DNA from: Patescibacteria group bacterium
GTDB lineage: Bacteria > Patescibacteriota > Minisyncoccia > Minisyncoccales > PEYH01
Length of the DNA stretch: 64,000 nucleotides
NCBI GenBank assembly: GCA_018900835.1
Contig: JAHIFQ010000004.1
Span: 1-64,000 of the forward strand
Reading direction: 5' to 3'
Under the pieces are notes generated by a model. That model worked only from the letters and a program-made list of their open reading frames with translations, was not told the origin of the DNA and ran no database searches. Positions 19,335 to 34,902 of this stretch are shown here, piece after piece (position 1 is the stretch's first letter; every line of letters starts with the position of its first letter). The position numbers and the translations under genes are program-made.

Positions 19335-20486
19335 TCAACGCTGTTCCAACAACTCTAGTATCTTCTGAATATCAGCCTTGAGTTGGCTGATCTCTTCGGG
19401 GGTTGTTTTATCTTGTGTTTTTCCAAACACGCCTTTCAGAATCTCCGAAAGACCTGGGACTGATTGAATCGTCAAGCTCGCTGCCAAAGGCGATTTTTCG
19501 ACCGCTTCAAGCGTTCTAACGAGCTTTCCAAGGTCTCCGAAGCGTTGAATCACTTCATAAACCTTTTCAAGGCGAGCAACTTCTCCATCCGCCTCAATTG
19601 ACGCCTTTTCTCGCGTCGCTTCAGCAGTTACGATAGTTGCTTCTTTGTCCATCTCAGCATTGAACTTCTTGAGCGTAGCAGCCCGATAATCAGCAGGTGG
19701 GTCAATGCTTATAACCCCCAAGCTGATAACCTTAATTCCATACTCATTTTCTATCTCTGGAATCGGACCGCCAAGAATAGAGAGCTCGTTGAAAATGTCC
19801 TTTCCGATGTCACTCGCCTTCTTGATGTGCTCGTCGTAGGTTTTTCCTGTGACCTTGTCGCGGACAGCGGCTCGCAAGGGCTGAATAGTCAACTCCAACC
19901 AATTCTGTGCCACGAATAAGGCCTTGTATGGGTTCACCACTCGGAGCTTGAGGATGAAGTGGAGCGATAGCGGAAGCTTATTCATGTCTTCCGCGCCTTC
20001 CACGCTGAAATGGTACTGGTCATCCTTAAGGATGATGTAATCCATCCACTCGCGGGGGTGATGTTGGATAGTCCCATCTGCCTTCACCCCTGTCCACTCA
20101 AAGGTGTATATGAACAGGTCTAAAATGGGCCAAAATCCATACCAGCGCAAACCGCCCAAGAAACGCTTTTTTTCTTGGTCCGGGCCAATACTGATAACAT
20201 TGTAGTCCGCATCAAGGCCATGTCCTTTCCACTGAATTAGCGCTTTCGCAACCTGATCGCCTTTGACAATGAACTTCACCGTGCCTTCGGGCATAAATGT
20301 GAAGAACTTGTTGCGCTGGGCGAGCACGAAGTAGACCAAAGCGAGTATCCCAGCGAGAATCGCTGCAACAACAAGAATAAACACCAAGGTCGGGACAGGT
20401 CTCACAAGAAACGAAATGAAAAGAGCCACTCCAACCACTGCCAACGCTATCCACAATACTGTTCTTTTACTTATCATATCTCTCAT
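19335..20486 (-). CDS. SPFH/band-7 (stomatin/HflC-like) membrane protein
   Basis: An N-terminal TM pair, then a band-7 core and a C-terminal coiled-coil (ATIVTAEATREKASIEADGEVARLEKVYEV). Its GC content is noticeably higher than the window average. Confidence 0.7.
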   Translation of the reverse strand: MRDMISKRTVLWIALAVVGVALFISFLVRPVPTLVFILVVAAILAGILALVYFVLAQRNKFFTFMPEGTVKFIVKGDQVAKALIQWKGHGLDADYNVISIGPDQEKKRFLGGLRWYGFWPILDLFIYTFEWTGVKADGTIQHHPREWMDYIILKDDQYHFSVEGAEDMNKLPLSLHFILKLRVVNPYKALFVAQNWLELTIQPLRAAVRDKVTGKTYDEHIKKASDIGKDIFNELSILGGPIPEIENEYGIKVISLGVISIDPPADYRAATLKKFNAEMDKEATIVTAEATREKASIEADGEVARLEKVYEVIQRFGDLGKLVRTLEAVEKSPLAASLTIQSVPGLSEILKGVFGKTQDKTTPEEISQLKADIQKILELLEQR

Positions 20487-20723
20487 CTCCTTGTATCTCT
20501 TTTTTTATTCTTTTGTGAAGGTACGACTCTACTATATGTAGAAACGGAGGATTCCAATGAATCTCCTTTGTTTCTTATGTCCATATTATACCAATAAATA
20601 CTTGCTCTGTCAACTTTTTTACAGGTTCCGATTCGTGTTCTTTGCTACCTGTTAATTTCTTTCTCTTAATTGCTGTGTTAAAATGGATTAAGATAAATTA
20701 GTATGATAAAATTATAGAACTAA

Positions 20724-21140
20724 ATGTTTATGGAAGAATTATCCCGAGACCAACTTTGGGCAATTTATAATACCCTGTCTGACACTCTAAAAGATGCGAT
20801 ATTTTCAGAAGATACTGCTGATGCTATTTTTAATATCTGTAAACTCTATGAAATAGATAAAAACTCGGAAGTGGCAAAAATAGTGGGCAGAATCCTGATG
20901 GGTCTTTTGCCTCCGGAATTCTTGAAAGACACGCTTCAAGAGGAAACAGGAATAAACGAAGACATTGCGAAGAAAACAACAATGGAGATAGAGCATTTTA
21001 TTTTAAATCCAGTGAAAAAAGAATTAGATGCTCTGTATCAAGAGGTTCAAGAAAAAAAAGAAAAGCCAGCAGGCGATATAAAAGAACAACCCTTGGAGGA
21101 ATTGGAGAAAGAAGATGATTATAGAGAACCAATACAATAA
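20724..21140 (+). CDS. Acidic hypothetical protein
   Basis: 138 aa, with no motifs recognised. Confidence 0.3.
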   Translation: MFMEELSRDQLWAIYNTLSDTLKDAIFSEDTADAIFNICKLYEIDKNSEVAKIVGRILMGLLPPEFLKDTLQEETGINEDIAKKTTMEIEHFILNPVKKELDALYQEVQEKKEKPAGDIKEQPLEELEKEDDYREPIQ

Positions 21141-21169
21141 TTTTTAGTTTTTAATTTTACATTTTACAT

Positions 21170-21595
21170 TTGCGAAGCATGGAGTATCCCTTACCACAAT
21201 TTTTATCAATAAAACCAAAGGTTGCCGGGCCGTTTAATCTGGCGCAATTACTTTGGATTGTTGGCGGAGCATTAGTATCAATAATTTTCTATTTCACTGC
21301 TCCTCTTATGACTTTTGTTTTAATCGGCATTCCGATTATGATTGTTGCTTTTATTTTGGCTTTTGGCAAAAGAAAGGGCTTCCCAATTCCAACAATAATA
21401 GTCCGTTCTTTTTCGTTCATTTTTGCCAGCAAAAGATATCTTTGGAAAAAAATTGACACTCCAGCGATTATGCTTCCAAAAGCAACCAAGGCAAAACCCG
21501 TAGAACCAAAAGACGACAAAGCAATTAGTTTAAAAATTTCCGGGCAGAGCCGTTTAAAAGAAATCGGACGATTAATTGAAATCCATTCCAAGTAA
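21170..21595 (+). CDS. Small 2-TM membrane protein (possible VirB3/PrgI-like)
   Basis: Two hydrophobic helices immediately upstream of the VirB4 genes. The assignment rests on position only. Confidence 0.3.
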   Translation: MRSMEYPLPQFLSIKPKVAGPFNLAQLLWIVGGALVSIIFYFTAPLMTFVLIGIPIMIVAFILAFGKRKGFPIPTIIVRSFSFIFASKRYLWKKIDTPAIMLPKATKAKPVEPKDDKAISLKISGQSRLKEIGRLIEIHSK

Positions 21596-21607
21596 ATTTC
21601 CTATATT

Positions 21608-22246
21608 ATGAATCTATCATCACAACAATTCCTGCCATTGGAACAGATAAAAGAGGGCATTATGATATTGAAAGACCATAGCTTAAGGGGCGTAATGATG
21701 GCATCCTCTTTAAACTTTGCTCTTAAAGCAACCGAAGAACAAGAAGCAATTATCTATCAATTCCAAACATTTTTAAATGCTTTGGATTTTTCCTGCCAAA
21801 TTTTTATTGCTTCAAGAAAAGTGAACATCACCGGCTATCTGGAAAAACTGAAAGAAGTTGAAGAAAAACATGAAAATGAATTAATGGCAACACAGACAAG
21901 GGAATACCGAAAATTTATTGAAAAAATAGTGGCAGGTGGCGCTATTATGAATAAAAATTTCTATATAATCGTGCCATTTTATCTTTCAGAAATGTATGGA
22001 AGCGCTACCAAGGGCGGACTGATATCTTTAAAAGCAATCCCAACATTAACCGAAGAAATGTTCCAAAGAGCAAAGTCCCAACTTTACCAAAGAATGGAAT
22101 TCTTGTCTTTGGGATTGAGAAGGTGCGGGGTTTGGAGCGTTGCATTACAAAGCGAAGAGCTGATAGAGCTTTTCTGGAGCATGTCTCATCCAAAAGAATC
22201 GTCTATCGGTTATTATCCAGAAATCCCGCCCGAATTAATACAATAG
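21608..22246 (+). CDS. VirB4/TrbE-family ATPase, N-terminal domain (ends at in-frame TAG 12 nt before the main VirB4 ORF)
   Basis: LPLEQIKEGIMILKDHSLRGVMMASSLNFAL..EEQEAIIYQFQTFLNAL matches the VirB4/TrbE N-terminal signature (dG.ll.kdGsl...). It is in the same reading frame as 22259..25858. Confidence 0.5.
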   Translation: MNLSSQQFLPLEQIKEGIMILKDHSLRGVMMASSLNFALKATEEQEAIIYQFQTFLNALDFSCQIFIASRKVNITGYLEKLKEVEEKHENELMATQTREYRKFIEKIVAGGAIMNKNFYIIVPFYLSEMYGSATKGGLISLKAIPTLTEEMFQRAKSQLYQRMEFLSLGLRRCGVWSVALQSEELIELFWSMSHPKESSIGYYPEIPPELIQ

Positions 22247-22258
22247 CGAATAAATAAA

Positions 22259-25200
22259 ATGAAACTTTCCTTTTTAGATGGATTATTAGGAAAAAAGACA
22301 GAATATGAGGCTGGTGCAGAACCGCAAGCAATGAACTTGCTTGATTTTATAGCTCCTCCAGCGATTACAATCGGGTCTGACTATTTCCAGATAGGCGAAA
22401 AATTCGCTAAATCATACTTTATTTTCTCTTACCCGAGATATTTGAGCACTGGGTGGTTGGCGCCAATTATAAACTTGGACATTCCATTGGACATTTCTAT
22501 TTTCTTTCATCCGATTGATACTGGGCTTATTCTGAAAAAATTAAGTAAAAAGGTTACTGAAGTTCAGTCGGAAATAATGGAAAAGGAAGAAAAGGGTTTA
22601 ATAAGGGACCCTATCCTTGAGACCGCTTACAAAGACATTGAGGTATTAAGAGACCGGCTCCAAACAGCGCAGGAAAGAATGTTCAGGGTTGGAATGTATC
22701 TGACCATATATGCTGATGACAAAAAGGAGTTGGAAAAAATAGAGGGCACTGTTCGCTCAATCCTTGAATCAAAATTGGTTTATGTAAAACCAGCCCTCTA
22801 CCAACAGGATAAGGCAATGATTTCAGCGTATCCCGCTGGTATAGACCGACTTCAAGTGCATACATCTATCAATACTAGTCCTCTCTCAACAATTTTCCCA
22901 TTTGTGTCTTTTGATTTGAGTTCAAACGAAGGAATCCTTTACGGGATAAACCAGCACAACAGCTCACTAGTGTTGTTTGACAGGTTTAGCTTGGAAAATG
23001 CAAACTCAGTCGTTTTCGGTAAGAGTGGCGGAGGCAAAAGCATTTTATCATCTGAACCAGTTCTGATAAGCGAGAACGGACAAACCAAGATTGAGAACAT
23101 CGGCAAAGTTGTAGAAAGAGCAATAGAAAAACACGGGTGCCATAAAATTGACGAGGAATTAGAGGGAGCAATAAATCCATATATCAAAGTTTGGAGTTTT
23201 GATAAAAATCTTAAAGGCAGTTGGTCAACGGTGACTGTTGCTGCAAGAAAAAAAGCTCCTGAAATATTTTATAAATTCAGAACCCGAAGCGGAAGAGAGG
23301 TGAGCACAACAGGAGACCACAATATGTTAATCCTTAAAAATGGACAAATAACCGCAGAAAAAAGCTCTGAAATTAATGAAGGAGAATTTATCCCGTTGTC
23401 CAGAAGGATTTCTGAAAACTCCTCTCCAGATAAATTCATAAACTTGCTTGAATTACTAAAAAATTCCCACTTGGTTTATGTTTTCAACGCTGAAAAAATC
23501 ATCAAAAAATATTATCATCAGATAAAAAATCTTGATAGTGGTTCCTCTTTAAAAAAATATCTCTATAAATACAAAGATGGTAGAAGGATTCCTATTAAAT
23601 ACTTCCTTGAAATTATTGATTCTTTAAAAATTTCAGAAGCCGAGCTTAATGATTTAAAAATTGTTTCCAAAAATGGAGATATTGCCAATGGCTTAAATAT
23701 AATCTTGCCTATTTCAAATAATCTGTTAAAAATAATCGGATTTATAGCATCAGAAGGAACAGTTGGCGAAAACTTTATAAATATCAGTAACCAAGACGAA
23801 GAATTCATCAAAGAGTGTATGGACTCTTTCAAGAATATTGGGGTTCCGTGCTATCAAGCAGACAAAGCTATTATTTGCGCAAGCCGTATTTTCACAGAAA
23901 TCATCAAGGCATTAGGCGGAAAACAGAAGTCCGGAGATAAGACGGTTTTGCCATTTATATTTAATGCTGAAAAAGAAAAAATTGCGCAATTCCTTTCCGC
24001 TTATTTTGAGGGAGACGGCGGGGTAGAACATGATAAAATATGCGCCACAACCAAATCAAAACAGCTATCTTCTGAAATTTCTTATCTGCTTTACTATTTT
24101 GGAATCATTGCCAGAATCCAAAAGAAAATTAAATGCGCCACCAATACAGAAGAAAAAAGAAAACAAACATATTGGCAAATTTCTGTATCAGGGAAGAATG
24201 ATTTAGAAAAGTTTGCCCAAGAAATTGGATTCATTTCTCACAGGAAAATAAACAAACTAAATAGCATTATTAAAGAAAATGGGAATACAAATGTTGATAT
24301 AATCCCGGGCTTAGCTCCGTTGTTTGAAGAAATCTACAACACCTGTCCTCCGCTCCTTATGGGCATGCAAACGGTCTCTGCTCTAAAGCGCGGGATATAT
24401 AATCCTTCACCAGATAATTTAAAAAACATAATAGAAAAAATAGAAAAACGGATTACTTATTTTAAAGATAGAGGAGAACAAATAAAAGTCCTGTCAGGAT
24501 TGCCAGAAATTCAGGAATTAATTGAATACGGAGAAAACATAGACAAAGAAACAGAAGACAATCTTGATTATAATTATAGTCCACAAGTCATAATGACCGA
24601 GCAAGCAAAGCAAACCGACCGACTTATTTGGCAGGAATACCAAGAAATTTTAAGAAATGGTATTCCAAAAATTGAAAATATTATCAAACGCCTAAAAAAT
24701 CTAGCAAACTCTGATTTATTTTTTGACGAAATCGTAAATATTGAAAAAATAGCCAACAAAGATGAACAATATGTTTATGATTTAACAGTGGACAACGAAG
24801 TATTTCTCTGCGGAAACGGTGGAATGTTTGTTCACAATTCGTACGCAATTAAGTTGGAGATTTTAAGGTCTTTGATGCTTGGAATTGAATCAATTATTAT
24901 TGACCCTGAAAACGAATATAGATTCCTTTCTGACGCAGTGGGCGGGAAGTTCTATAATATTTCTTTGGCATCAGAAAGCCATATAAACCCTTTTGACCTG
25001 CCAGAACCAGTTGATGATGAAGAGCCAAAAGATGTTTTGCGCTCCAACATTATCAACTTGGTTGGGCTTATGAGAATAATGCTTGGCGGGCTCACGCCTG
25101 AAGAGGACTCTGTTATTGACCAAGCTATTAACGAAACATATGCTGCCCGCGACATCACCGCAGACACAGACCCTGGTCTATGGAAAGAAAGGGTGCCATT

Positions 25201-25858
25201 GATGTCTGATTTAGAATCAGTGCTGGAAACAATGGAAGGCGCTGAATCGCTGGTTAAACGATTAAGAAAATTCACCAAAGGCGTTTACGCGGGATTCTTT
25301 AATTATCCAACAAATGTAGTAATGGATAATGCTTTGGTTGTTTTTGGCATTAAAAATCTTGAAACAGAATTAAGGCCATTGGCAATGTTTATTGTTATGC
25401 GCTACATTTGGAACGCCATTAAAGGTGATTTAAAAAAGAGAATCTTGGTGATTGACGAAGCGTGGTGGCTGATGCAAACAGAAGACAGCGCTTCTTTCCT
25501 TTATGGAATTGTAAAAAGAGGAAGAAAATATTGGCTTGGCACAACCACAATCACACAGGATGTGAACGATTTTATGAAATCAGACTATGGCCAGCCCATA
25601 ATCACAAATTCATCTTTGCAACTCTTGATGAAACAATCTCCAGCCACTATTCAGGTTGTAAAAGAGACCTTCAATCTTACTGACCAAGAAAAATACCTGC
25701 TTTTGGAAGCGCCTATTGGCGAAGGAATATTTTTTGCCGGAGAAAAACATGTTTCTATCAGGATTGTTGCTTCCTACACAGAGGACCAAATCATAACAAC
25801 CTCGCCTGAAGAAATGTCTAAAATAAAAAAGCTTAAAAAGATAAAAGAAAATGCCTGA
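22259..25858 (+). CDS. VirB4/TrbE/TraC-family conjugative ATPase containing a ~597-aa intein in the P-loop
   Basis: The exteins carry Walker A GKSGGGKS (aa 254-261), Walker B RILVIDEAWW and a VirB4 C-terminal region. The intein starts right after the P-loop and ends FVHN|S. Confidence 0.8.
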   Translation: MKLSFLDGLLGKKTEYEAGAEPQAMNLLDFIAPPAITIGSDYFQIGEKFAKSYFIFSYPRYLSTGWLAPIINLDIPLDISIFFHPIDTGLILKKLSKKVTEVQSEIMEKEEKGLIRDPILETAYKDIEVLRDRLQTAQERMFRVGMYLTIYADDKKELEKIEGTVRSILESKLVYVKPALYQQDKAMISAYPAGIDRLQVHTSINTSPLSTIFPFVSFDLSSNEGILYGINQHNSSLVLFDRFSLENANSVVFGKSGGGKSILSSEPVLISENGQTKIENIGKVVERAIEKHGCHKIDEELEGAINPYIKVWSFDKNLKGSWSTVTVAARKKAPEIFYKFRTRSGREVSTTGDHNMLILKNGQITAEKSSEINEGEFIPLSRRISENSSPDKFINLLELLKNSHLVYVFNAEKIIKKYYHQIKNLDSGSSLKKYLYKYKDGRRIPIKYFLEIIDSLKISEAELNDLKIVSKNGDIANGLNIILPISNNLLKIIGFIASEGTVGENFINISNQDEEFIKECMDSFKNIGVPCYQADKAIICASRIFTEIIKALGGKQKSGDKTVLPFIFNAEKEKIAQFLSAYFEGDGGVEHDKICATTKSKQLSSEISYLLYYFGIIARIQKKIKCATNTEEKRKQTYWQISVSGKNDLEKFAQEIGFISHRKINKLNSIIKENGNTNVDIIPGLAPLFEEIYNTCPPLLMGMQTVSALKRGIYNPSPDNLKNIIEKIEKRITYFKDRGEQIKVLSGLPEIQELIEYGENIDKETEDNLDYNYSPQVIMTEQAKQTDRLIWQEYQEILRNGIPKIENIIKRLKNLANSDLFFDEIVNIEKIANKDEQYVYDLTVDNEVFLCGNGGMFVHNSYAIKLEILRSLMLGIESIIIDPENEYRFLSDAVGGKFYNISLASESHINPFDLPEPVDDEEPKDVLRSNIINLVGLMRIMLGGLTPEEDSVIDQAINETYAARDITADTDPGLWKERVPLMSDLESVLETMEGAESLVKRLRKFTKGVYAGFFNYPTNVVMDNALVVFGIKNLETELRPLAMFIVMRYIWNAIKGDLKKRILVIDEAWWLMQTEDSASFLYGIVKRGRKYWLGTTTITQDVNDFMKSDYGQPIITNSSLQLLMKQSPATIQVVKETFNLTDQEKYLLLEAPIGEGIFFAGEKHVSIRIVASYTEDQIITTSPEEMSKIKKLKKIKENA
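23048..24838 (+). mobile_element. Intein with LAGLIDADG (dodecapeptide) homing-endonuclease domain inside VirB4
   Basis: Block A lies after GKSGGGKSIL (S-SEPVLISENG). The LAGLIDADG blocks are KIIGFIASEGTVGE and IAQFLSAYFEGDGGVE. The C-terminal splice junction is VHN followed by the +1 Ser. The rejoined extein reads GKSGGGKSIL-SYAIKLEIL. Confidence 0.7.
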
Positions 25859-26153
25859 AACATTGTCAGCAAGAGGAATTATGAGATTGATAATCGCTAT
25901 CATTCTTGATATCTTTGGTTTCCTTTGTTCAGCCATTTCCCTTCTCGGGCTACCAGGAATGTTTATAGGCGGAGCGCTTTCGCTTATTCCAGACGGCTTA
26001 GGATTCATTTTTATAGGCGGAATGAACAGAAAAAAGGATAGGGAATTCTACCTTTCTTTCGTGGCTGAAATTATTCCTGGATTGGGAGCTCTTCCTTTTT
26101 GGACAGCATATGTTCTGCTTGGGAAAGGATATACTCCATCTGACCCTAAATAA
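25851..26153 (+). CDS. Small membrane protein (3 TM), hypothetical
   Basis: Overlaps the VirB4 stop by 8 nt. It is Gly-rich and hydrophobic. Confidence 0.3.
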   Translation: MPETLSARGIMRLIIAIILDIFGFLCSAISLLGLPGMFIGGALSLIPDGLGFIFIGGMNRKKDREFYLSFVAEIIPGLGALPFWTAYVLLGKGYTPSDPK

Positions 26154-26157
26154 AAAA

Positions 26158-28722
26158 ATGACGAATAACACGAAAAAATTTATTCTGTTTATGGGGTCAA
26201 TCTTATTGGCTGTTTTTTTGTTAACAATAGTCCATTTTTCAAGAGTAAGCGCTGCTGATTTGGAAAACATATACCCAGATGTTCCTGGAGCAATAACGCC
26301 AACAACCACTGAAACGCCTCTGCCTGTATTATTAAAATATATTTATAATCTTTCTATTATCTTGGCCGGCTTTATAGCATTTGTAGTCATGGTTTGGGGA
26401 GGTGTGAAATATATTTTAGCTGGACCAAGGCCAGGAAAATTGGCAGACGCCAAGGAACAAATCACGCTCGGATTAGTAGGCATGATGCTGATTTTCGCTT
26501 CATATATGATAGTAAACACCATAAATCCTGACTTTACTAAATTAATAACAATTCTGCCCATTACTTTTACCGATACCTTTATCCCATCAAGCGATAATCC
26601 AAGTTCAATGGATGTCGGACTTTACGAGATTCCTATCGGCTCAATCATCACCTCTGAATTCGGAGCTTCCTCTTTTTTGGCAACCACTAGTCCAGATATT
26701 GACTACGCTAATACCGAATGGCCGCCTACAATCACAAGCACTAGCACCTATGATACTGATTTTCAGGGCGCTCTTTTCGGAGCGCGCCTAAGGCGAATAC
26801 ACGAAGTTGCCAGCACCACTGTGCCAGTGGCAAAAAAATTACACGATTTGAGCAACGGGCTCCATGATTTAATAAATAAATGCACTTGCATGTTCGGATG
26901 TCATGGGAATATCCTATTAATATGCGCCGTATCTACAGATTGCGGATGCGACACAGGATATTTGTGCAGTGATGACACAAAAGACAAAATGGAAAAAAGA
27001 ATAGGGGAAATCGAATCCTTAAAAGACGCTTTTAAGGCCTTCTTAAATCCCAATTCCCTTGTAGAGGATTATTATAACAATAATCAATCAGATATTGACG
27101 GCTTGGATGATGATGAAATAAAAGACCTTATCCAGATGATGATAGAGGTAGAGAATAAGGGCGGTTATAGTCCGAAAAACGACCCGCATGAAAGAGATAT
27201 TGGGAGAAATCTGCTTGAAATGACTGCTTTTATAAATGAAATGAATAAGATGAAAAGAATGCTCAACCCCTATGACCAGGATGTGGGCTATTTAAGCTTG
27301 CTTACATTCGCCGAAGCCACCACGCTGGAAGCCAATATGGATGTAAGCTCCACTATTTATAATTATTTCGCCGCCCTTCCAGCTGGGCTGGAAAAAATTG
27401 ACGAAAAAAACGACCCTGCCACTTTTTATTCAGCAGCCACTCTTCCTTTTCCATATGGGATGCCAGACGATAGACCGTATAATCAAGATGCTCCGGAACC
27501 CGATTTTCTGCCTTATTATCCAGGAGAAAGAAAAATGTCCTATCAAAAAAACATTGCTTTCGCAGCCGTACCATTCGTTCCCCCAAATGTGCAATTTGAT
27601 TTTGACACCCCTCCAAGCACGGGCGGAACCTGTAATTATATATTGGAAATCCCTATCGGCAGAGCATTAGATGAGGCAATCAATCTCGCCCAAGCAATCA
27701 ATAAAGAATTATTTAATATATTCGTCAAAGGACATATAGAAATAATCGGCGCCAATATGCTGATAAAAGCAGCAGAAAAATTCATTGACCTGAAATGCGT
27801 CGATGCCTGCATCAAGCCAACATGTGTCGGCGAACCACCTCTCGCATTATGCGTTCCACCATTCCTCTGTATGCCGACTCTCGAAACAATATTCTTGAAT
27901 GCTCAAAGTGATATTGCCATATTCCTTATTGAATTAACAACTATCCCGGGTATGAACATTGCCATAGATGATATTGAAACTTCATTCAAAAAATTGGACT
28001 CCCAGGAACCGATTTTGATAGACCGCGTGTGTAAAGACGAAAAAGGAAATTGTCGAAAAAGGAACGGAACAATTAATAATAGTAAAGTAGAAGAAAGGGA
28101 ATATACTTTAAAAGAAAAATTAATGGAGGTTCAACTTCTGCTTAATAGGTCTAGGGAGCTCGTCGGCCAGGACAAAGAAAAAAGCGTTTACGAAATCTTG
28201 TTAGAGGATTACATTGCCCTCGGTTTTGGCAAATATTATGAAGATTTGTTAAAATATATAAGGAGGATTGACGCTATTGAAAGAACCGACCTTCAGGACT
28301 GCCACATAATATCCGGAACCATCAAGAAAATAGAGGGAGAGAATTACAGCACATCATTGATGAATTGCCGAGATGCCAAGCTCCTGGACTTGATAGATTT
28401 CTATAATGAAGACATTTGCAGTCCTAATCCTTATCTTGACGCCAATTATTATTTAAAACCCGAAGCCCGCAAGTTAAGGCCTATCAGTTGTTATTGCTAT
28501 GACGAGGATGCTGACAAAAAATACTATAATAAAAAGGATTTCCCTGAACTCTACCAAAGTATAAGCATTATTGTTCCCAGTTTTATGGCTGATATAGAAG
28601 ATTTAGACACTGATGCCCTGCATGATTTGGCGCAACAATGGCAAAATGCCCGTATAGACCTCAATCATTTCTCCGGATTCGGCAATAATTATTTTTGCTG
28701 TATTAAAAATTATGAAGAATAA
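26158..28722 (+). CDS. Large Cys-rich surface protein with pilin-like (VirB2/TrbC-like) N-terminal 2-TM module
   Basis: The start is placed at MTNNTKK, because the ORF track start at 26110 overlaps the previous gene. The N-terminal ~130 aa are homologous to the next ORF (YIYN..II.AG.IA......GG..Y..AG.P....DA.EQI..GLVG.....SYMI.N.INPD). Roughly 700 aa of Cys-rich extracellular domain follow. Confidence 0.45.
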   Translation: MTNNTKKFILFMGSILLAVFLLTIVHFSRVSAADLENIYPDVPGAITPTTTETPLPVLLKYIYNLSIILAGFIAFVVMVWGGVKYILAGPRPGKLADAKEQITLGLVGMMLIFASYMIVNTINPDFTKLITILPITFTDTFIPSSDNPSSMDVGLYEIPIGSIITSEFGASSFLATTSPDIDYANTEWPPTITSTSTYDTDFQGALFGARLRRIHEVASTTVPVAKKLHDLSNGLHDLINKCTCMFGCHGNILLICAVSTDCGCDTGYLCSDDTKDKMEKRIGEIESLKDAFKAFLNPNSLVEDYYNNNQSDIDGLDDDEIKDLIQMMIEVENKGGYSPKNDPHERDIGRNLLEMTAFINEMNKMKRMLNPYDQDVGYLSLLTFAEATTLEANMDVSSTIYNYFAALPAGLEKIDEKNDPATFYSAATLPFPYGMPDDRPYNQDAPEPDFLPYYPGERKMSYQKNIAFAAVPFVPPNVQFDFDTPPSTGGTCNYILEIPIGRALDEAINLAQAINKELFNIFVKGHIEIIGANMLIKAAEKFIDLKCVDACIKPTCVGEPPLALCVPPFLCMPTLETIFLNAQSDIAIFLIELTTIPGMNIAIDDIETSFKKLDSQEPILIDRVCKDEKGNCRKRNGTINNSKVEEREYTLKEKLMEVQLLLNRSRELVGQDKEKSVYEILLEDYIALGFGKYYEDLLKYIRRIDAIERTDLQDCHIISGTIKKIEGENYSTSLMNCRDAKLLDLIDFYNEDICSPNPYLDANYYLKPEARKLRPISCYCYDEDADKKYYNKKDFPELYQSISIIVPSFMADIEDLDTDALHDLAQQWQNARIDLNHFSGFGNNYFCCIKNYEE

Positions 28723-30256
28723 AGAGATGAAAAAAATCATATTAATAATAAGTGTTTTGGTTGTCCTCTCTTGCGCAGGACTAATATACGCCCTTGAAGT
28801 AGAATATCCAACTGTAGGCGGTATGCAGGGCCCACAGGATACTGGAGTCAAATTAACAACCTATATCCGTTATATCTATAACTTTGCCATTATAAGCGGA
28901 GGACTGATTGCTTTATTGGCTTTAATTTACGGCGGATTCAGATTTTTGACTTCAGCTGGCAATCCAAGCGCTATCACAGACGCAAGAGAACAAATCTTAG
29001 CAGGACTTTTGGGATTGGTTGTTATTTTGGGTTCATATATAATACTAAACGAACTGAATCCTGACTTAGTGTCATTGAGAATCCCGGGGATTGACGCAAA
29101 CAGAAAGGGAATAATTTTATATAGTCAGGCCGGTTGCGGTGGATTGAGCGATGATGACGCTTCTATGCCCGAGGTTGCTGATATCCCTGACGGCCTGCTT
29201 TACAAAGCAATGAACAGCAGCGGATCAATAACAGATCAAGACGGAAACAGTTTTCTTCCTGTGTCTCTGTTTTCTTTTCAGGATTCAAAAGATTTAATAA
29301 TACAATTTTATTCCAATGACAAATGCGAAGGAAACACGGTTCCAGCGCCACAACTTAATTCTAACCAATGTTTAGATATCAGCGCTTCTAATCTTAAGTG
29401 CATAAAGTTCATTTGGTACAAGCCCGGGGTCTGGGTCTTCAACCAATTAGAAAATGGAGCTAATGTGCCTGACCCCGGTGACCTGCCTCTTGGATGGGAA
29501 GAAGGAAAAGAATATATAGTATTCCAGAGCAATCAAGAATCTTTACCAAACAACTTCCACGACCAAATTGTGGCTCTGGTAATCGTGCCCAGTAAAGAGT
29601 CCGAGGAAGGATTGGGGAAAAACTACGGCGTAATCGCCCACAATATCCCCGGACCCATGCTCAAAGAAAAAGGTTGGGCCCATATTTATCTGCCGGGAAA
29701 CGGTTCTGCTTCGGGTTGCCGATTATCTGGAGAGATAACTAAGTGCGGACCATTTGAAAATAATTCTTCTGATATTTCTTCGTTAACAATATTCAATATG
29801 CCCAAAGAAGGAACAGCCACTAAGGCAATAAAGGTTTGCCGAAATGACAGATGCGAGCCGCAGAGAGTCGGAGATGACTTCTTTGATGTTTATAAAGAAT
29901 ATTTTCCGGGAAGCGGACTTCAAGAAAGAACCAGTGTTTTCGGAGGAGCGGTGTCTCCCTATAACCTCGGAAGCGGAATAGTGTATGGTAAAAATCTTAA
30001 TGGTGAAAATTGGGATACTGGCAATCCTATTGTTCTTGGCAGGAATCAGGCAGACGGGGTTTCAGCTATTGAAATAGATGAAGGAGCCCGTTATCTGACG
30101 CTCCTTTACGACGAATATCTTGATTTTTCCAATATTAATACTAACACTTCGGCTGACGCAGCCATTATCAATATTTCTATGCCATCTTTGAGAACAATTC
30201 AAATGGATGGTAGAGTTGGGACAATTATAGTTATCCGAGTGGGGACAGAAGATTAA
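28712..30256 (+). CDS. Second surface protein with the same pilin-like N-terminal module, different C-terminal domain
   Basis: N-terminal motifs YIYNFAIISGGLIALLALIYGGFRFLTSAGNPSAITDAREQILAGLLGLVVILGSYIILNELNPD. Its start overlaps the upstream gene by 11 nt. Confidence 0.45.
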   Translation: MKNKEMKKIILIISVLVVLSCAGLIYALEVEYPTVGGMQGPQDTGVKLTTYIRYIYNFAIISGGLIALLALIYGGFRFLTSAGNPSAITDAREQILAGLLGLVVILGSYIILNELNPDLVSLRIPGIDANRKGIILYSQAGCGGLSDDDASMPEVADIPDGLLYKAMNSSGSITDQDGNSFLPVSLFSFQDSKDLIIQFYSNDKCEGNTVPAPQLNSNQCLDISASNLKCIKFIWYKPGVWVFNQLENGANVPDPGDLPLGWEEGKEYIVFQSNQESLPNNFHDQIVALVIVPSKESEEGLGKNYGVIAHNIPGPMLKEKGWAHIYLPGNGSASGCRLSGEITKCGPFENNSSDISSLTIFNMPKEGTATKAIKVCRNDRCEPQRVGDDFFDVYKEYFPGSGLQERTSVFGGAVSPYNLGSGIVYGKNLNGENWDTGNPIVLGRNQADGVSAIEIDEGARYLTLLYDEYLDFSNINTNTSADAAIINISMPSLRTIQMDGRVGTIIVIRVGTED

Positions 30257-30715
30257 TTAAACTGGTTTGATGATGATTTTACGGTAAGGGTCTGCGCCAA
30301 TGCTTTCGGTTTTGACATCGCTCCTATCTTTGAGTTCTATATGAACAATTCTTCTTTCATAAGCTGACATTGGTTTCAGCTCTTTTTCTTGTCTGGAAAG
30401 AGCGACATCATCAGCATAACTTTTAGCAGTATCTTTTAAATAATCAAGTTTCTTTTTCTTGTAATCATTGATATCCAAATCAATATAAAACTCTTCTTTA
30501 AATTTTTTTCTTAAAAACTTGTTCAACAGGTTCTGGATTTCAAAAAGAGTCCTGCCATTTTCGCCAATCAGGATTTGCGGTTCTTCCATTTGAATCAAAA
30601 CCGGCATTGATGAGTCAGTCATTTCCTCAACCTCTACTTTTGTTTCAAGGGTGGTTTTTTTAAAAAATTCCTGAACTGCTTTTCTCACTTTTTGGCTTAG
30701 TTTCCTTTCAAACAT
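30257..30715 (-). CDS. jag: Jag/KhpB-like KH + R3H RNA-binding protein
   Basis: KH-like ILIGENGRTLFEIQNLL and R3H MSAYERRIVHIELKDRSDVKTESIG. It sits in the conserved position after yidC. Confidence 0.65.
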   Translation of the reverse strand: MFERKLSQKVRKAVQEFFKKTTLETKVEVEEMTDSSMPVLIQMEEPQILIGENGRTLFEIQNLLNKFLRKKFKEEFYIDLDINDYKKKKLDYLKDTAKSYADDVALSRQEKELKPMSAYERRIVHIELKDRSDVKTESIGADPYRKIIIKPV

Positions 30716-30716
30716 A

Positions 30717-31445
30717 TTATTTTTTCGTTAAATAATATTTTTTTCTTATGAAAAACTGCTGGCCTGCCATAAATATCCCTGCCACGAGTAAATAAAGCCC
30801 GAGCGCAGATGGCAAACGAAAAAGAATAACAGTAATCAGGATAGGGAACAGGAATAACATTTGTTTCTGGAACATATCTGCGAAACCCGGTTTTTTGGAG
30901 GACTGCTCTTCTGATTTGTCTTTTTTAGGCATAGCAAATTTGCTTTGGAGAAAAAAGGTTATCCCTGCTATCACAGCCAAAATCGGGGACGGCTCGTTCA
31001 AATTAATTCCGAGAAACATAGGATTAATCACTTCTGGCCTCTGGACAAAACTATAAAGATAAACAAAACTTTCTTCCTGTATGCCCTGCCAAAACATCCT
31101 GTAAAGAATAAATAAAATCGGCAACTGAACAAGGGTAACAAAAAACGCTGAAAAAGGATTAATTTTTTCGGTCTTATAAAGCCCCATCATTGCTTTTGCC
31201 TGCTCCTCTTTATTGTTTTTGTATTTTGCCTGAATCTCTTTCAGTTTTGGCTGTAATGCCTGCATTGCCAACTGGGACTTGCTTGCCTTATCTTGCAAAG
31301 GATATAAAATAATCCTGATAAGCAGGGTTAAGGTGATAATTGCCACTCCAAGATTATGGCCAGGCAAATAATAACAAAGCAAAATCAAGAGATTAAACAA
31401 GGGCTGCCACAATATTACATGAAAAAAATTGGTAAAAGCATTCAT
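30717..31445 (-). CDS. yidC: Membrane protein insertase YidC (short form)
   Basis: Five TM helices and a conserved 60-kDa inner-membrane-protein core. Sits in the rpmH-rnpA-yidC order. Confidence 0.85.
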   Translation of the reverse strand: MNAFTNFFHVILWQPLFNLLILLCYYLPGHNLGVAIITLTLLIRIILYPLQDKASKSQLAMQALQPKLKEIQAKYKNNKEEQAKAMMGLYKTEKINPFSAFFVTLVQLPILFILYRMFWQGIQEESFVYLYSFVQRPEVINPMFLGINLNEPSPILAVIAGITFFLQSKFAMPKKDKSEEQSSKKPGFADMFQKQMLFLFPILITVILFRLPSALGLYLLVAGIFMAGQQFFIRKKYYLTKK

Positions 31446-31449
31446 TGGT

Positions 31450-31800
31450 TTATTTCTTTTTAATAATCCCTGATTTTAATAATAGTTCTCCGATGGTTTT
31501 TTTTATTGTCTGAAAATCAATTGTCTTGTTAACTCCGTTCAAGGCGCTGATAATAATATCTTGCCCCGGGCTTATGGCTGAAAGCATTTCTTTAATTGCT
31601 CCCCTGATTCTTCTTTTAATCAAATTTCTTTCCGTTGCTTTTGAAGCAATCTTTTTACTCACCACAATCCCTATCCGTGAAACATTGGAATCATTTGTTG
31701 TAAATTTTAAAAATAAAAAATCCTGCTTAAAGCCCTTGCCTTTTTTATAAACCCTTTCAAAATCATTTTTCTTTTTAAGACGATGGATTCTTGGCAACAT
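31450..31800 (-). CDS. rnpA: RNase P protein component
   Basis: 116 aa. Carries RIGIVVSKKI...KATERNLIKRRIR (RnpA RNR motif). Confidence 0.85.
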   Translation of the reverse strand: MLPRIHRLKKKNDFERVYKKGKGFKQDFLFLKFTTNDSNVSRIGIVVSKKIASKATERNLIKRRIRGAIKEMLSAISPGQDIIISALNGVNKTIDFQTIKKTIGELLLKSGIIKKK

Positions 31801-31809
31801 TTTATACAG

Positions 31810-31944
31810 TTATACGGTGATTCTTTTTCTTCCTTTTTTCCTTCTATTTTGCAGAATTTTCCTGCCGTCGCTTGTCGCTGACCGCTTCAAAAAGCCATGT
31901 TTTTTCTTCCTTTTCTTTTTGTTTTGTTTGTAAGTAATCGCCAT
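31810..31944 (-). CDS. rpmH: 50S ribosomal protein L34 (44 aa; below ORF-track length cutoff)
   Basis: Hand translation of the minus strand gives MAITYKQNKKKRKKKHGFLKRSATSDGRKILQNRRKKGRKRITV. It matches L34 (..K.HGF..R....GR..L..RR.KGRK.L.V) and lies upstream of rnpA. Confidence 0.8.
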   Translation of the reverse strand: MAITYKQNKKKRKKKHGFLKRSATSDGRKILQNRRKKGRKRITV

Positions 31945-32127
31945 AAATTAGTTTCATTAAAATTAATTTGTATTTTGTTTAACCAGTATAATCATTAAAG
32001 ACACATAAGTCAACCGATTTCTTCCACCCATAATCCCCATTTTATCCCCATCTTTTCAACACCATGCTTTGATTTATGCGGTAAACCATTGATTTGCCTT
32101 TTAAAAAAATATAGCATAGTATGAGAA
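31945..32127 (+). promoter_or_regulatory. rpmH-dnaA divergent intergenic region with DnaA-box-like sites (dnaA promoter region)
   Basis: TTATCCCCA (1 mismatch to TTATCCACA) near 32040 and AT-rich flanks. Confidence 0.3.
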
Positions 32128-33507
32128 TTGAGATTAACCCTCCCAAACATTATGAACAAAGAAGAGCTCTGGCAAGCTATCCTGTCCCAAATCCAGTTCA
32201 ATATATCCCAGGCGAATTTTAGCACCTGGTTTAAGAACACATACATTCTTTCAAACGATAACGGGACAATAATAATAGCTGTGCCAAACAATTTTTCAAA
32301 AGAATGGTTGGAAAGAAAATATAACAAGCTTATTTTAAATGGGTTAGAGGAATTAAATGAAAGAGTTAAGGTAATAGAATATAGGGTAGTGAATGTCCCT
32401 GCCCCCCAGATGCCAAAAAAATCTGTGAAAGCAGAAATAGCTGATATAAACCAGTTAGAATTGGAGGAACTGGCGCTTGATAAATATACTAATCTTAATC
32501 CTAGATACACTTTTGATAATTTTGTAGTCGGCCCATTTAATGAATTAGCGCATGCCGCTGGGTGGGCAGTGAGCCAAAAGCCGGGATTGGTATATAATCC
32601 ATTTTTTGTTTATGGCGGAGTAGGACTTGGTAAGACCCATCTGCTTCAAGCAATAGGGAATAAGGTCTATGGACAGTCCGCCAAAAAGAAAATTAAATAT
32701 GTTTCTTCTGAAAGATTCATATCCGGCATTATTAATTCTATAAGAAATCAAACTATTGATGAATTTAAAAACACTTACCGTGATTTTGATATGCTGATAA
32801 TTGATGATATCCAATTTCTGGCAGGCAAAGAAAAGACCCAAGAAGAATTCTTTCATCTTTTCAATATCCTATATGAATCCAATAAACAAATCATCATCTC
32901 ATCCGACAGGCCACCTAAAGCGATTTCAGCGCTGGAAGAGCGATTGCGTTCGAGATTTGAAGGCGGGATGATAACAGATATAGGAACTCCTGATTTTGAA
33001 AGCAGAATCGCGATTTTAAAACAGAAAATTCAAGAAAAAAAGGCAGGTATAAGCGGAGAGGTTTTAGAGTATATCGCCTCAAACATACAAAAGAATGTAA
33101 GGGAACTTGAGGGCGCCTTGAAATCCTTAGCTGCATGGAAACAGCTCCACAACCAAGACATTGACCTTGATTTGGCAAAAAAGGTTTTGAAAAGAACTAT
33201 AAACCCGCAACCCAAAGGACTTAATTTTCAGAAAATAATCAACACAGTGGCGGAGTTCTATAATATGAAAGATAAGGACTTGTATGTTAGCTCAAGAAAA
33301 AAAGAAATCGTTAGACCACGACAGATAGCTATGTATTTTTTGAGGGAAGAATTGAAGAGTTCTTTTCCGTTTATTGGTAAAAAATTCGGGGGCAAGGACC
33401 ACACCACAGCCATTTATGCCTGTGAAAAAATTTCAAAAGAAATAATTGAAAATGAACAATTCGCAGAAGAAATAATTCTTATCAAGGAAAAGATTTACTC
33501 TTATTAG
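32128..33507 (+). CDS. dnaA: Chromosomal replication initiator DnaA
   Basis: AAA+ Walker A GGVGLGKTHL, the sensor motifs and the C-terminal DNA-binding domain (IGKKFGGKDHTT). Confidence 0.95.
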   Translation: MRLTLPNIMNKEELWQAILSQIQFNISQANFSTWFKNTYILSNDNGTIIIAVPNNFSKEWLERKYNKLILNGLEELNERVKVIEYRVVNVPAPQMPKKSVKAEIADINQLELEELALDKYTNLNPRYTFDNFVVGPFNELAHAAGWAVSQKPGLVYNPFFVYGGVGLGKTHLLQAIGNKVYGQSAKKKIKYVSSERFISGIINSIRNQTIDEFKNTYRDFDMLIIDDIQFLAGKEKTQEEFFHLFNILYESNKQIIISSDRPPKAISALEERLRSRFEGGMITDIGTPDFESRIAILKQKIQEKKAGISGEVLEYIASNIQKNVRELEGALKSLAAWKQLHNQDIDLDLAKKVLKRTINPQPKGLNFQKIINTVAEFYNMKDKDLYVSSRKKEIVRPRQIAMYFLREELKSSFPFIGKKFGGKDHTTAIYACEKISKEIIENEQFAEEIILIKEKIYSY

Positions 33508-33768
33508 GAGAATTAACTGATGTGAATAATCTGTTAAGAAACACTGAAAAACCATGGGATAAGCGATTGGATAACAAGTGGACAAAACAAGACCTTTAAA
33601 AACCTAAAAAATTATCCAAATCTAATTAAGGGGTTATCAACTGATATATCAACTAAGTTATCAACTTTTTCTCCCCAAAACTAACCCTTGCGCAACTTAA
33701 AGAAACAATTAAAATAGAGTCGTAAACTAGACGCATAGTAGTAATAATTAATGTATTAATTAAATAAT
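33508..33768 (+). promoter_or_regulatory. Candidate oriC (dnaA-dnaN intergenic): cluster of DnaA-box-like 9-mers + AT-rich unwinding region
   Basis: ATTGGATAA (8/9 to TGTGGATAA), TTATCCAAA (8/9), three tandem (G/A)TTATCAACT repeats at about 33630-33670, and AGTGGACAA. The 3' 80 nt are more than 80% A+T. Confidence 0.5.
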
Positions 33769-34902
33769 ATGAAGATAATAATACTTAAAGAAAAATTGGC
33801 TAAAGGATTAAGTATGGTTGAGAAAATAACTGGAAGAAACTTTACTCTTCCGATTTTAAATAATGTTTTGATTTCTGCTGAAGATAACTCATTGAAATTA
33901 TCAACCACTGACCTTGAATTAGGGATTAGCTATTGGGGACTTGCGAAGGTAGAAGAAAAAGGAGAAATCACTATCCCAGTGAAAACCCTTTCTAGTTTTG
34001 TCTCTCTTATTGGAGAAGAGAAAGTGACAATAGAGAGCAAGGAAAAAACACTTTATTTAAAGGGAGAAAATTATAAGACACAGATAAAGGGGCTTGAAGC
34101 AAAGGATTTTCCAATTATCCCGGAAGTTGTTTCAGATAAATGGATTGAATTTGACGCAACTACATTTTGTAAAGGGATAATGCTTGTAATGGATTTTTGC
34201 GCACTCACTCAAGTAAGGCCTGAACTCTCTGGCTTATATTTTGTTTTTCAAAAAAATTCGGCTAAAATCGTGGCTACCGACAGTTTTCGTTTAGCGGAAA
34301 AAAGCATTGCTTTAGATGGGGCTACTCAAGGAATAGACGGTCCACAGTCATTTATTCTTCCAAGAAATGCTGCCAGGGAATTAGTCAATATTTTTTCAGA
34401 GCACAATGGAAAAATCAAGTTTTATTTATCTCCGAGTCAAATTATGGTTGAAAGCTATGTTGACGAAACCAAAAACCCACAAGCGCGCTTAGTTTCCCGT
34501 TTGATTGAAGGTGAATACCCTGATTATGAAGCAGTGATTCCAAAAGAGTTTAAAACACGGCTCACTCTTTCCAGGGAAGAATTCTCAAACCAGATTAAAA
34601 TTGCCAGTTTATTCAGCGGAAGAACGAATGAAGTAAAATTGGAAATAAGCCCTAAAAAAGGAAATGTTTTGATATCTTCGCAAAGCGTTGATTTGGGGGA
34701 AACAGAATCCAAAATGGCGATAGACGCAAGCGGAGATGATGTGGAGATAAGCTTTAATTACAAGTTTTTGTCTGAAGGATTGAATCAAATAAAATCAGAA
34801 AAAATCGTTCTTGAGCTTAATGGTCAAGACGGACCTGGTGTTTTAAAATCCAGTGACGATTCAACTTATATTTATGTAATAATGCCGATTAAGGCATCTT
34901 GA
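33769..34902 (+). CDS. dnaN: DNA polymerase III beta sliding clamp
   Basis: 377 aa with a three-domain clamp layout and the N-terminal MKIIILKEKL...NFTLPILNNVLI. Confidence 0.9.
   Translation: MKIIILKEKLAKGLSMVEKITGRNFTLPILNNVLISAEDNSLKLSTTDLELGISYWGLAKVEEKGEITIPVKTLSSFVSLIGEEKVTIESKEKTLYLKGENYKTQIKGLEAKDFPIIPEVVSDKWIEFDATTFCKGIMLVMDFCALTQVRPELSGLYFVFQKNSAKIVATDSFRLAEKSIALDGATQGIDGPQSFILPRNAARELVNIFSEHNGKIKFYLSPSQIMVESYVDETKNPQARLVSRLIEGEYPDYEAVIPKEFKTRLTLSREEFSNQIKIASLFSGRTNEVKLEISPKKGNVLISSQSVDLGETESKMAIDASGDDVEISFNYKFLSEGLNQIKSEKIVLELNGQDGPGVLKSSDDSTYIYVIMPIKAS

Follow-up and report, generated by a model that had tools for sequence, protein, structure and literature searches.

A predicted class-1 LAGLIDADG intein within the Walker A motif of a VirB4-like type IV secretion ATPase of a Patescibacteria group bacterium

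The P-loop of ATPases is a documented hot spot for inteins, as seen at site b of DnaB, site a of MCM, site a of RFC-S, and in UvrB and VirB11/GspE-like proteins, and five inteins of VirB4 (COG3451), from Firmicutes and Proteobacteria, had been tabulated by 2015 (Novikova et al. 2015, Table 3, PMC4760082). The closest inteins of known structure, PI-PkoII (the Tko Pol-2 intein, 2cw7/2cw8) and PI-PfuI (1dq3), are archaeal inteins with Ser or Cys at position 1, and have three parts: a Hint part, a two-motif LAGLIDADG endonuclease and accessory domains. Here we describe an element with the same three-part organization in a 64,000-nucleotide stretch of chromosomal DNA from the metagenome-assembled genome of a Patescibacteria group bacterium (assembly GCA_018900835.1, contig JAHIFQ010000004.1, positions 1 to 64,000; this whole stretch is called the window). 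It lies in the gene for a VirB4-like ATPase of a chromosomal type IV secretion system (T4SS). We consider it very likely that this is an in-frame, 600-residue class-1 LAGLIDADG intein between Lys260 and the Walker A serine, which splices in the standard manner and, by analogy, is capable of homing.

The T4SS of Patescibacteria is akin to the monoderm MPF-FATA machinery, is usually found without a relaxase and near the replication origin, and was reported to be indispensable to the epibiotic growth of one Saccharimonadia strain (PMC12102498). Inteins are not mentioned in that 2025 survey, and our literature searches found nothing on inteins in VirB4 of Patescibacteria or the candidate phyla radiation (CPR), although LAGLIDADG endonucleases are abundant in the rRNA introns of CPR genomes (PMC11270868). 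Compared with the five tabulated VirB4 inteins, which are known here from their table entries alone, the window intein has the same host ATPase, but it occurs in another phylum and in a chromosomal, apparently non-conjugative T4SS. With the P-loop inteins of other ATPases it shares the position in the nucleotide-binding loop and the Walker A Ser/Thr as +1 nucleophile, and differs from them in the host family. With inteins known both from P-loops and from VirB4, the window intein is an ordinary, previously unannotated case.

The precursor is encoded by a single uninterrupted open reading frame. By exact look-up, it corresponds to GenBank MBU3964189.1 / MBU4162056.1, 'hypothetical protein KJ562_00420' [Patescibacteria group bacterium]. 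The parts of the precursor are as follows.

22259..25858, + strand: virB4 precursor open reading frame, 1199 residues plus the TGA stop codon (from the listing of open reading frames)
22259..23038, + strand: N-extein, residues 1-260, ending in the first seven Walker A residues, GKSGGGK (from the orthologue and DNA alignments)
23018..23038, + strand: P-loop GKSGGGK, residues 254-260
23039..24838, + strand: intein, 600 residues, S261..N860, class-1 with Ser1 and a nested LAGLIDADG endonuclease
24839..25855, + strand: C-extein, residues 861-1199, reading SYAIKLEIL from 24839
25439..25468, + strand: Walker B motif RILVIDEAWW in the C-extein (ILVIDEAWW is residues 1062-1070)

At the local base composition, the probability that 600 codons in a row lack a stop by chance is ~3e-22. 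The NCBIfam model NF045971 conju_CD1110 ('VirB4-like conjugal transfer ATPase, CD1110 family') matched the precursor with 348.6 bits (cut-off 325), in one stretch on either side of the intein, and the Pfam matches P-loop_TraG (7e-20), AAA_10 and a weak CagE_TrbE_VirB flanked it in the same way. From these matches we identify the open reading frame as a VirB4-like T4SS ATPase of the CD1110 family (MPF-FATA type) that is split by the putative intein.

We searched for orthologues using the spliced sequence as query, and thousands of Patescibacteria VirB4-like proteins were returned. The closest intein-free orthologues (P0001 and P0002) were 94% and 93% identical and exactly 599 residues long, which equals 1199 minus 600. 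In an alignment of 13 sequences, 12/12 orthologues read GKSG(G/S)GK-SYA(I/V)KLEIL, with nothing between the Lys and the Ser, and both S861 and Y862 were invariant. When the window gene was aligned with the intein-free locus L001 (83% nucleotide identity), we observed one 1800-nt gap, at 23039..24838, and zero other indels. The intein-free junction in L001 reads GGCGGAGGAAAG followed directly by TCGTACGCAATC (at the centre of L001 10700-10860), and its Ser codon, TCG, matches the TCG at 24839 of the window and not the AGC at 23039. PI-PkoII (2cw7), which starts 'SILPEE...', aligns with the window intein end to end, residue 1 with residue 1 and the terminal HN with N600. Since the orthologue lengths and alignment agree with the single DNA gap, the intein is delimited as S261..N860, and these alignments place it in frame inside Walker A, between Lys260 and the Ser (GKSGGGK-S). 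The predicted Glu-C peptide across the spliced junction is NANSVVFGKSGGGKSYAIKLE.

The initial annotation had placed an intein of ~597 residues at 23048-24838, just after the Walker A lysine/serine and the following IL, with GKSGGGKSIL-SYAIKLEIL as the product of excision. The P-loop, the end at 24838 and the C-terminal GGMFVHN followed by Ser+1 (at 24839) were all correctly called. The alignment with intein-free orthologues that it had suggested likewise bears out the C-terminal boundary, but puts the N-terminal one three codons earlier, between the Lys and the Ser, and the orthologues show the product as GKSGGGK-SYAIKLEIL. A start at Ser264 (23048), with the extein keeping GKSGGGKSIL ahead of SYAIK, is not without appeal, since Ser264, too, could act as nucleophile, and 'SEPVLISENG' read alone resembles a block A. 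However, 'SIL' is absent from all 12 aligned orthologues, the orthologue length is 599 residues and not 602, and the 1800-nt gap begins at 23039. Furthermore, PI-PkoII and all members of the family open with S-(I/V/L)-x-x-x-E-P-V straight after GK, and with a GxxGxGKSIL-S sequence the helix behind the P-loop would begin with three additional residues. Both alignments, of orthologues and of DNA, rule out this start, and we give it practically no credence.

When the insert was removed in silico, GKSGGGK+S was regained, Walker A and Walker B were intact, and the product was co-linear with the orthologues and 94% identical to the closest of them. Ser861 has two roles, as +1 nucleophile and as Walker A serine (GxxGxGK-S). 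In P-loop NTPases this serine of GxxGxGK(S/T) is the residue that coordinates Mg2+.

Within the insert we located the splicing and endonuclease motifs listed here.

23039..23080, + strand: splicing block A, SILSSEPVLISENG, in which Ser261 (intein residue 1) is the N-terminal nucleophile
23291..23335, + strand: splicing block B, GREVSTTGDHNMLIL, with the TxxH motif T351-G-D-H354 (intein T91, H94)
23723..23764, + strand: LAGLIDADG motif 1, LLKIIGFIASEGTV, with the catalytic Glu499 (intein E239) in GFIASE499G
23729..23764, + strand: dodecapeptide string KIIGFIASEGTV, within LAGLIDADG motif 1
23981..24025, + strand: LAGLIDADG motif 2, IAQFLSAYFEGDGGV, with the catalytic Asp586 (intein D326) in YFEGD586GG
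23993..24025, + strand: dodecapeptide string LSAYFEGDGGV, within LAGLIDADG motif 2
24767..24838, + strand: splicing blocks F and G, QYVYDLTVDNEVFLCGN-GGMFVHN, with block F Asp841, the penultimate His859 and the terminal Asn860
24818..24838, + strand: GGMFVHN, with the +1 Ser next

We aligned the window intein with eleven related inteins that were 28-53% identical to it (alignment A2). S1 was invariant in 12/12, and so were T91, D93, H94, V579-Y580-D581-L582, H599 and N600. In motif 1, G234, E239 and G240 were kept throughout the family except in one degenerate allele (P0039), and in motif 2, Y322, E324, G325, D326 and G327 were conserved. The intein models proposed as a check in the initial annotation all matched the precursor: Pfam Intein_splicing (1.6e-17) and LAGLIDADG_3 (7.2e-20, in two stretches), and the NCBIfam models TIGR01445 intein_Nterm and TIGR01443 intein_Cterm, both above their cut-offs (TIGR01443 with 18.7 bits vs 15.6).

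An AlphaFold2 model of the intein, built on alignment A2, had a mean predicted local distance difference test score (pLDDT) of 87 and a predicted template modeling score of 0.84, with one disordered stretch (intein 506-519, pLDDT <50). Searched against the PDB with Foldseek, its top match was PI-PkoII (2cw7; E 1.7e-28, template modeling score 0.73 normalized to the target), followed by the endonuclease-containing TliVMA intein, PI-PfuI and PI-SceI. The Hint part matched mini-inteins such as 5o9i (root-mean-square deviation 1.9 Å over 121 columns), while the endonuclease core matched I-DmoI and I-Tsp061I. In the secondary structure of the model, intein 227-396 forms a pseudo-dimeric alpha-beta-beta-alpha-beta-beta-alpha core. 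PI-PkoII was also the best PDB match by sequence (3.9e-15), and like the window intein it starts 'SIL...' and ends '...HN'. The two are only ~17% identical, and their hosts differ, being an archaeal DNA polymerase in one case and the P-loop of a bacterial T4SS ATPase in the other. The window intein also has accessory regions unlike those of PI-PkoII and PI-PfuI, namely the insert at its residues 131-225 and the helical region that follows its endonuclease. Judged by its motifs and its modeled fold, the insert appears to be a canonical class-1 intein with a monomeric two-motif LAGLIDADG homing endonuclease, in which all the splicing residues are present. The domain models, the orthologue alignment, the structure model and the conserved junctions of its relatives agree with the initial annotation in this respect, and the two dodecapeptide blocks it had named are both there.

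Following class-1 chemistry, the 1199-residue precursor would have a split P-loop and would neither bind nor hydrolyze ATP. Splicing would begin with an N-O acyl shift at Ser261, after which Ser861 would attack the ester in a trans-esterification. Asn860 would then cyclize, aided by His859 and the block F Asp, and an O-N shift would join the exteins into a 599-residue ATPase carrying GKSGGGK-SYAIKLEIL. Since the P-loop is split in the precursor, the ATPase would be able to work only after splicing; this part of the initial annotation is supported by the position of the intein within Walker A and by the conserved junctions. The freed intein would be a PI-PkoII-like endonuclease that, by analogy, cuts intein-free virB4 at its P-loop codons and is copied in via repair. 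Homing of this kind into intein-free virB4 would explain why the intein occurs sporadically, and at exactly one site, across Patescibacteria.

Using the intein alone as query, we obtained 41 protein clusters, of which ~35 were Patescibacteria VirB4-like proteins with the intein at the same site. The VirB4 hosts of the family were found in Yanofsky-, Falkow-, Andersen-, Uhr-, Wildermuth- and Pacebacteria, and many of these relatives were partial, ending at contig ends. Inteins had been described as uncommon in conjugative ATPases, which is fair, yet with these clusters and the five tabulated cases an intein in VirB4 is not new. Wherever the junctions of the relatives were on the sequence, they read GxGK-S(I/V/L)... 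and ...HN-SY(x)VK, and HN was followed by Ser or Thr in every relative that had a C-terminal junction, including the distant ones. The sub-clade with >35% identity was essentially confined to Patescibacteria VirB4-like proteins. More distant relatives occupied the same P-loop position (GK-S or GK-T) in DUF87/HerA-like, UvrB, ResIII-helicase, VirB11/GspE-like and MCM-type proteins. In the DUF87-type hosts, the inteins were ~38% similar vs ~29% for the exteins, which is consistent with movement of inteins from one ATPase family to another.

When 1.84 billion cluster representatives were searched exhaustively, we obtained 96 matches at E ≤ 1e-30, with one close relative, P0161 (JGI 3300004238; locus L005). 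This protein has 1263 residues, with a 664-residue intein that is 81% identical to ours and sits at the same residue; its extein is 94% identical, and its locus has the same synteny next to dnaA. A second allele, P0039 (GCA_021129555.1; L004 1036..4002), comes from another Paceibacteria lineage and also has a dnaA-adjacent locus. Its intein is 391 residues long, ~53% identical and at the same GK-S site; the splicing blocks are intact, but a deletion has removed LAGLIDADG motif 1, and motif 2 has become YFEKYAK, with loss of the acidic residue. This intein resembles a natural halfway stage on the path to a mini-intein. The window copy retains both motifs. An assembly artefact was considered and ruled out, since independent assemblies (L004 from NCBI, L005 from JGI) have inteins at the same site and in the same synteny.

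Among the matches listed, >99% of the close orthologues are without the insert. In a neighbor-joining tree of the exteins, 2/4 alleles of the closest clade have the intein (window and P0161) and 2/4 do not (P0001 and P0002), while P0039 falls in another clade amid intein-free sisters. Sporadic presence is the pattern expected of a homing element, though the tree is only indicative.

At the codon level, the ratio of nonsynonymous to synonymous substitution rates (dN/dS, approximate here) between the window and L005 was 0.017 for the N-extein and 0.021 for the C-extein, and 0.073 for the whole intein (0.045 for Hint-N, 0.074 for the LAGLIDADG core). The extein value against the intein-free L001 was 0.021. 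The dS values between the window and L005 were 1.2-2.2, i.e. saturated, in the intein and the exteins alike. From the similar dS and the low dN/dS, it would follow that the intein has diverged along with its host gene and has been constrained throughout, including the endonuclease.

The window intein and P0161 differ at one place within the intein.

24539..24619, + strand: internal-deletion scar, 27 residues (precursor residues 761-787, intein ~501-527), a low-confidence linker

At this position the window intein has a net loss of 64 residues relative to P0161, where relatives have a ~90-residue helical module. The 64-residue module is kept by P0161 and, in alignment A2, by the seven other VirB4-hosted inteins longer than 570 residues (579-670). 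The scar is 40% identical to P0161 at the amino acid level vs ~80% elsewhere, looks like a scrambled remnant at the DNA level, and coincides with the sole low-confidence stretch of the AlphaFold2 model. When the P0161 intein was modeled, the matching region (~residues 491-583) was confident and all-helical, and most of it is missing from the window copy. The lost module gave no match to Pfam; just upstream of it, at intein 442-475, there is a weak HTH_3-like signal (E 0.026, below the cut-off). Recognition of DNA by the endonuclease is one possible role of the module. Shorter family members in other hosts (DUF87/HerA-like, UvrB) lack it entirely, so that it may also be dispensable. The initial annotation had stated that the endonuclease can spread the allele. 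This is plausible, but its activity is uncertain, because the window copy has lost this 64-residue helical module.

Several observations count against a splicing, homing-capable intein, or limit how far it can be taken. Protein splicing itself is deduced from the conserved residues and the purifying selection on the exteins, and DNA cleavage is assigned to the endonuclease by analogy. The loss of 64 residues may have impaired its activity or its recognition of DNA. Saturation of dS makes the dN/dS values approximate and, since the tree is also a simple one, a single ancestral gain and repeated homing are not separable. No co-conversion tract was visible beside the insertion in comparison with the intein-free L001, the identity being flat at 0.75-0.90 per 60 nt. 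The compositional signal of foreignness is weak: the intein has a GC content of 0.337 vs 0.396 for the exteins, but lies only ~2 standard deviations from the genes of the window. Finally, ~99 kb of this genome are known, and a second, intein-free copy of virB4 may exist elsewhere.

The alternatives differ in which function of the intein they give up. It is conceivable, though we lean against it, that splicing is intact while the homing endonuclease is dead or dying. The 64-residue deletion would then mark the beginning of reduction to a mini-intein, while the intein would persist only because its imprecise loss would destroy an important gene. The deletion with its scrambled 27-residue remnant, the confident helical fold of the lost region in P0161, the precedent for decay in P0039 and the flat identity around the insertion site would all agree with this. 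However, both LAGLIDADG motifs and both catalytic acidic residues are intact, purifying selection acts on the LAGLIDADG core (dN/dS 0.074) over a divergence at which dS is saturated, and the complete absence of the module from the distant DUF87/HerA-like and UvrB-hosted members suggests that an endonuclease might do without it. If splicing were given up instead, the insert would be a former intein fixed as a permanent domain, or virB4 would be a pseudogene in this lineage. The GenBank label 'hypothetical' and the fact that splicing is deduced from sequence leave some room for this, but all residues for the four splicing steps are conserved, and splitting GK-S of Walker A is incompatible with ATPase function unless the insert is removed. 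The exteins show a dN/dS of ~0.02 against intein-free and intein-bearing relatives alike. Most orthologues are without the segment, and the Hint blocks are present, so it is not a conserved non-splicing domain of VirB4. We regard a non-splicing insertion as very improbable.

A conditional switch has also to be weighed, in which splicing answers an environmental or host cue and activates the T4SS ATPase post-translationally. The intein does sit in the catalytic P-loop of the signature ATPase of a system reported to be essential for epibiotic growth in the Saccharimonadia strain (PMC12102498), purifying selection has kept the intein over a long divergence, and conditional splicing has been proposed for the P-loop inteins of other ATPases (PMC4760082). 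However, most orthologues, even the 94%-identical ones, manage without an intein, so a regulatory role could not be general. With Ser1 and Ser+1 there is no redox-sensitive Cys at the junctions, and the sequence holds no hint of a sensor. We consider such a switch unlikely. A further idea is that the intein is a post-translational gate on an epibiont T4SS, with a cue such as host contact, and that the endonuclease is kept for a host-beneficial or addiction-like role and not for homing; this, too, we think improbable. Together, these considerations lead us to prefer an intein that splices in the standard manner and is capable of homing by analogy.

The genes around virB4 point to the system it belongs to. 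Those nearest to it are as follows.

21170..21595, + strand: PrgI/VirB3-like protein (Pfam PrgI 4e-07)
21608..22246, + strand: 212-residue TrsD/TraC-N-like protein; the syntenic gene in L001, L004 and L005 bears PF26593 TraC-like
25851..26153, + strand: 100-residue membrane protein, overlapping the VirB4 stop codon by 8 nt
26110..28722, + strand: 870-residue protein with an N-terminal T4SS_pilin (VirB2-like) domain
28712..30256, + strand: 514-residue protein with an N-terminal T4SS_pilin (VirB2-like) domain

Ahead of virB4, the gene order is comM-like, LysM/M23, ksgA, a gene for a 782-residue protein, Band_7, PrgI/VirB3-like and TrsD/TraC-N-like. From virB4 onwards, it continues with the 100-residue membrane protein, the two T4SS_pilin proteins, jag, yidC, rnpA, dnaA and dnaN. 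The T4SS cluster thus abuts jag-yidC-rnpA and dnaA-dnaN (30257..34902), which puts the presumed replication origin at a distance of a few kb from the gene that bears the intein. In L001, L004 and L005, homologues of the 100-residue membrane protein, 93-99 residues long, are found at this same place. The protein, which has no family assignment, is probably a T4SS subunit that is translationally coupled. The Pfam T4SS_pilin matches had E-values of 1e-07 in the 870-residue protein and 1e-05 in the 514-residue protein, the latter just under the cut-off. The N-terminal pilin domain is the only domain recognized in either protein. Both proteins are unusually large for pilins, and their synteny is conserved in L001, L004 and L005; the 870-residue protein has a long Cys-rich extension after the pilin domain. 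A scan of 20400..30400 for promoters and terminators gave counts similar to those in shuffled sequence.

This arrangement agrees with that reported for Patescibacteria (PMC12102498). The machinery had been called conjugative, but the host system is the T4SS that Patescibacteria have on the chromosome beside dnaA, without a relaxase, and is not what is usually meant by a conjugation apparatus.

A profile built from the intein family found no second intein in the window. The PilB-like T2SSE ATPase (41754..43055, - strand) and the RtcB ligase (55196..56632, + strand) of the window are both intein-free; these are families that often host inteins elsewhere. At 6170..8854 (+ strand) the window also has an 894-residue open reading frame without a Pfam match. 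Its product has a long, Glu/Lys-rich, coiled-coil-like N-terminal half, a Pro/Thr-rich linker, one transmembrane segment and a globular C-terminal part. Its coding strand is strongly A-rich, and the AT skew of ~0.46 over 6-8 kb is the maximum of the window.

The finding leaves the current understanding of inteins unchanged, and its value is mainly one of annotation, in that a 'hypothetical' protein becomes the signature ATPase of the Patescibacteria T4SS. Searches filtered by length or coverage could miss or misjudge intein-bearing virB4 genes, many of which are fragmented in assemblies, and inteins may in this way lead to under-calling of virB4 in surveys of Patescibacteria. The alleles also form a natural series for the study of intein persistence in ultra-small genomes, consisting of a 664-residue full intein, the 600-residue module-deleted copy, a 391-residue copy with a dead endonuclease, and empty sites. 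For the organism, it would mean that a core T4SS component encoded near oriC tolerates a selfish element in its catalytic loop.

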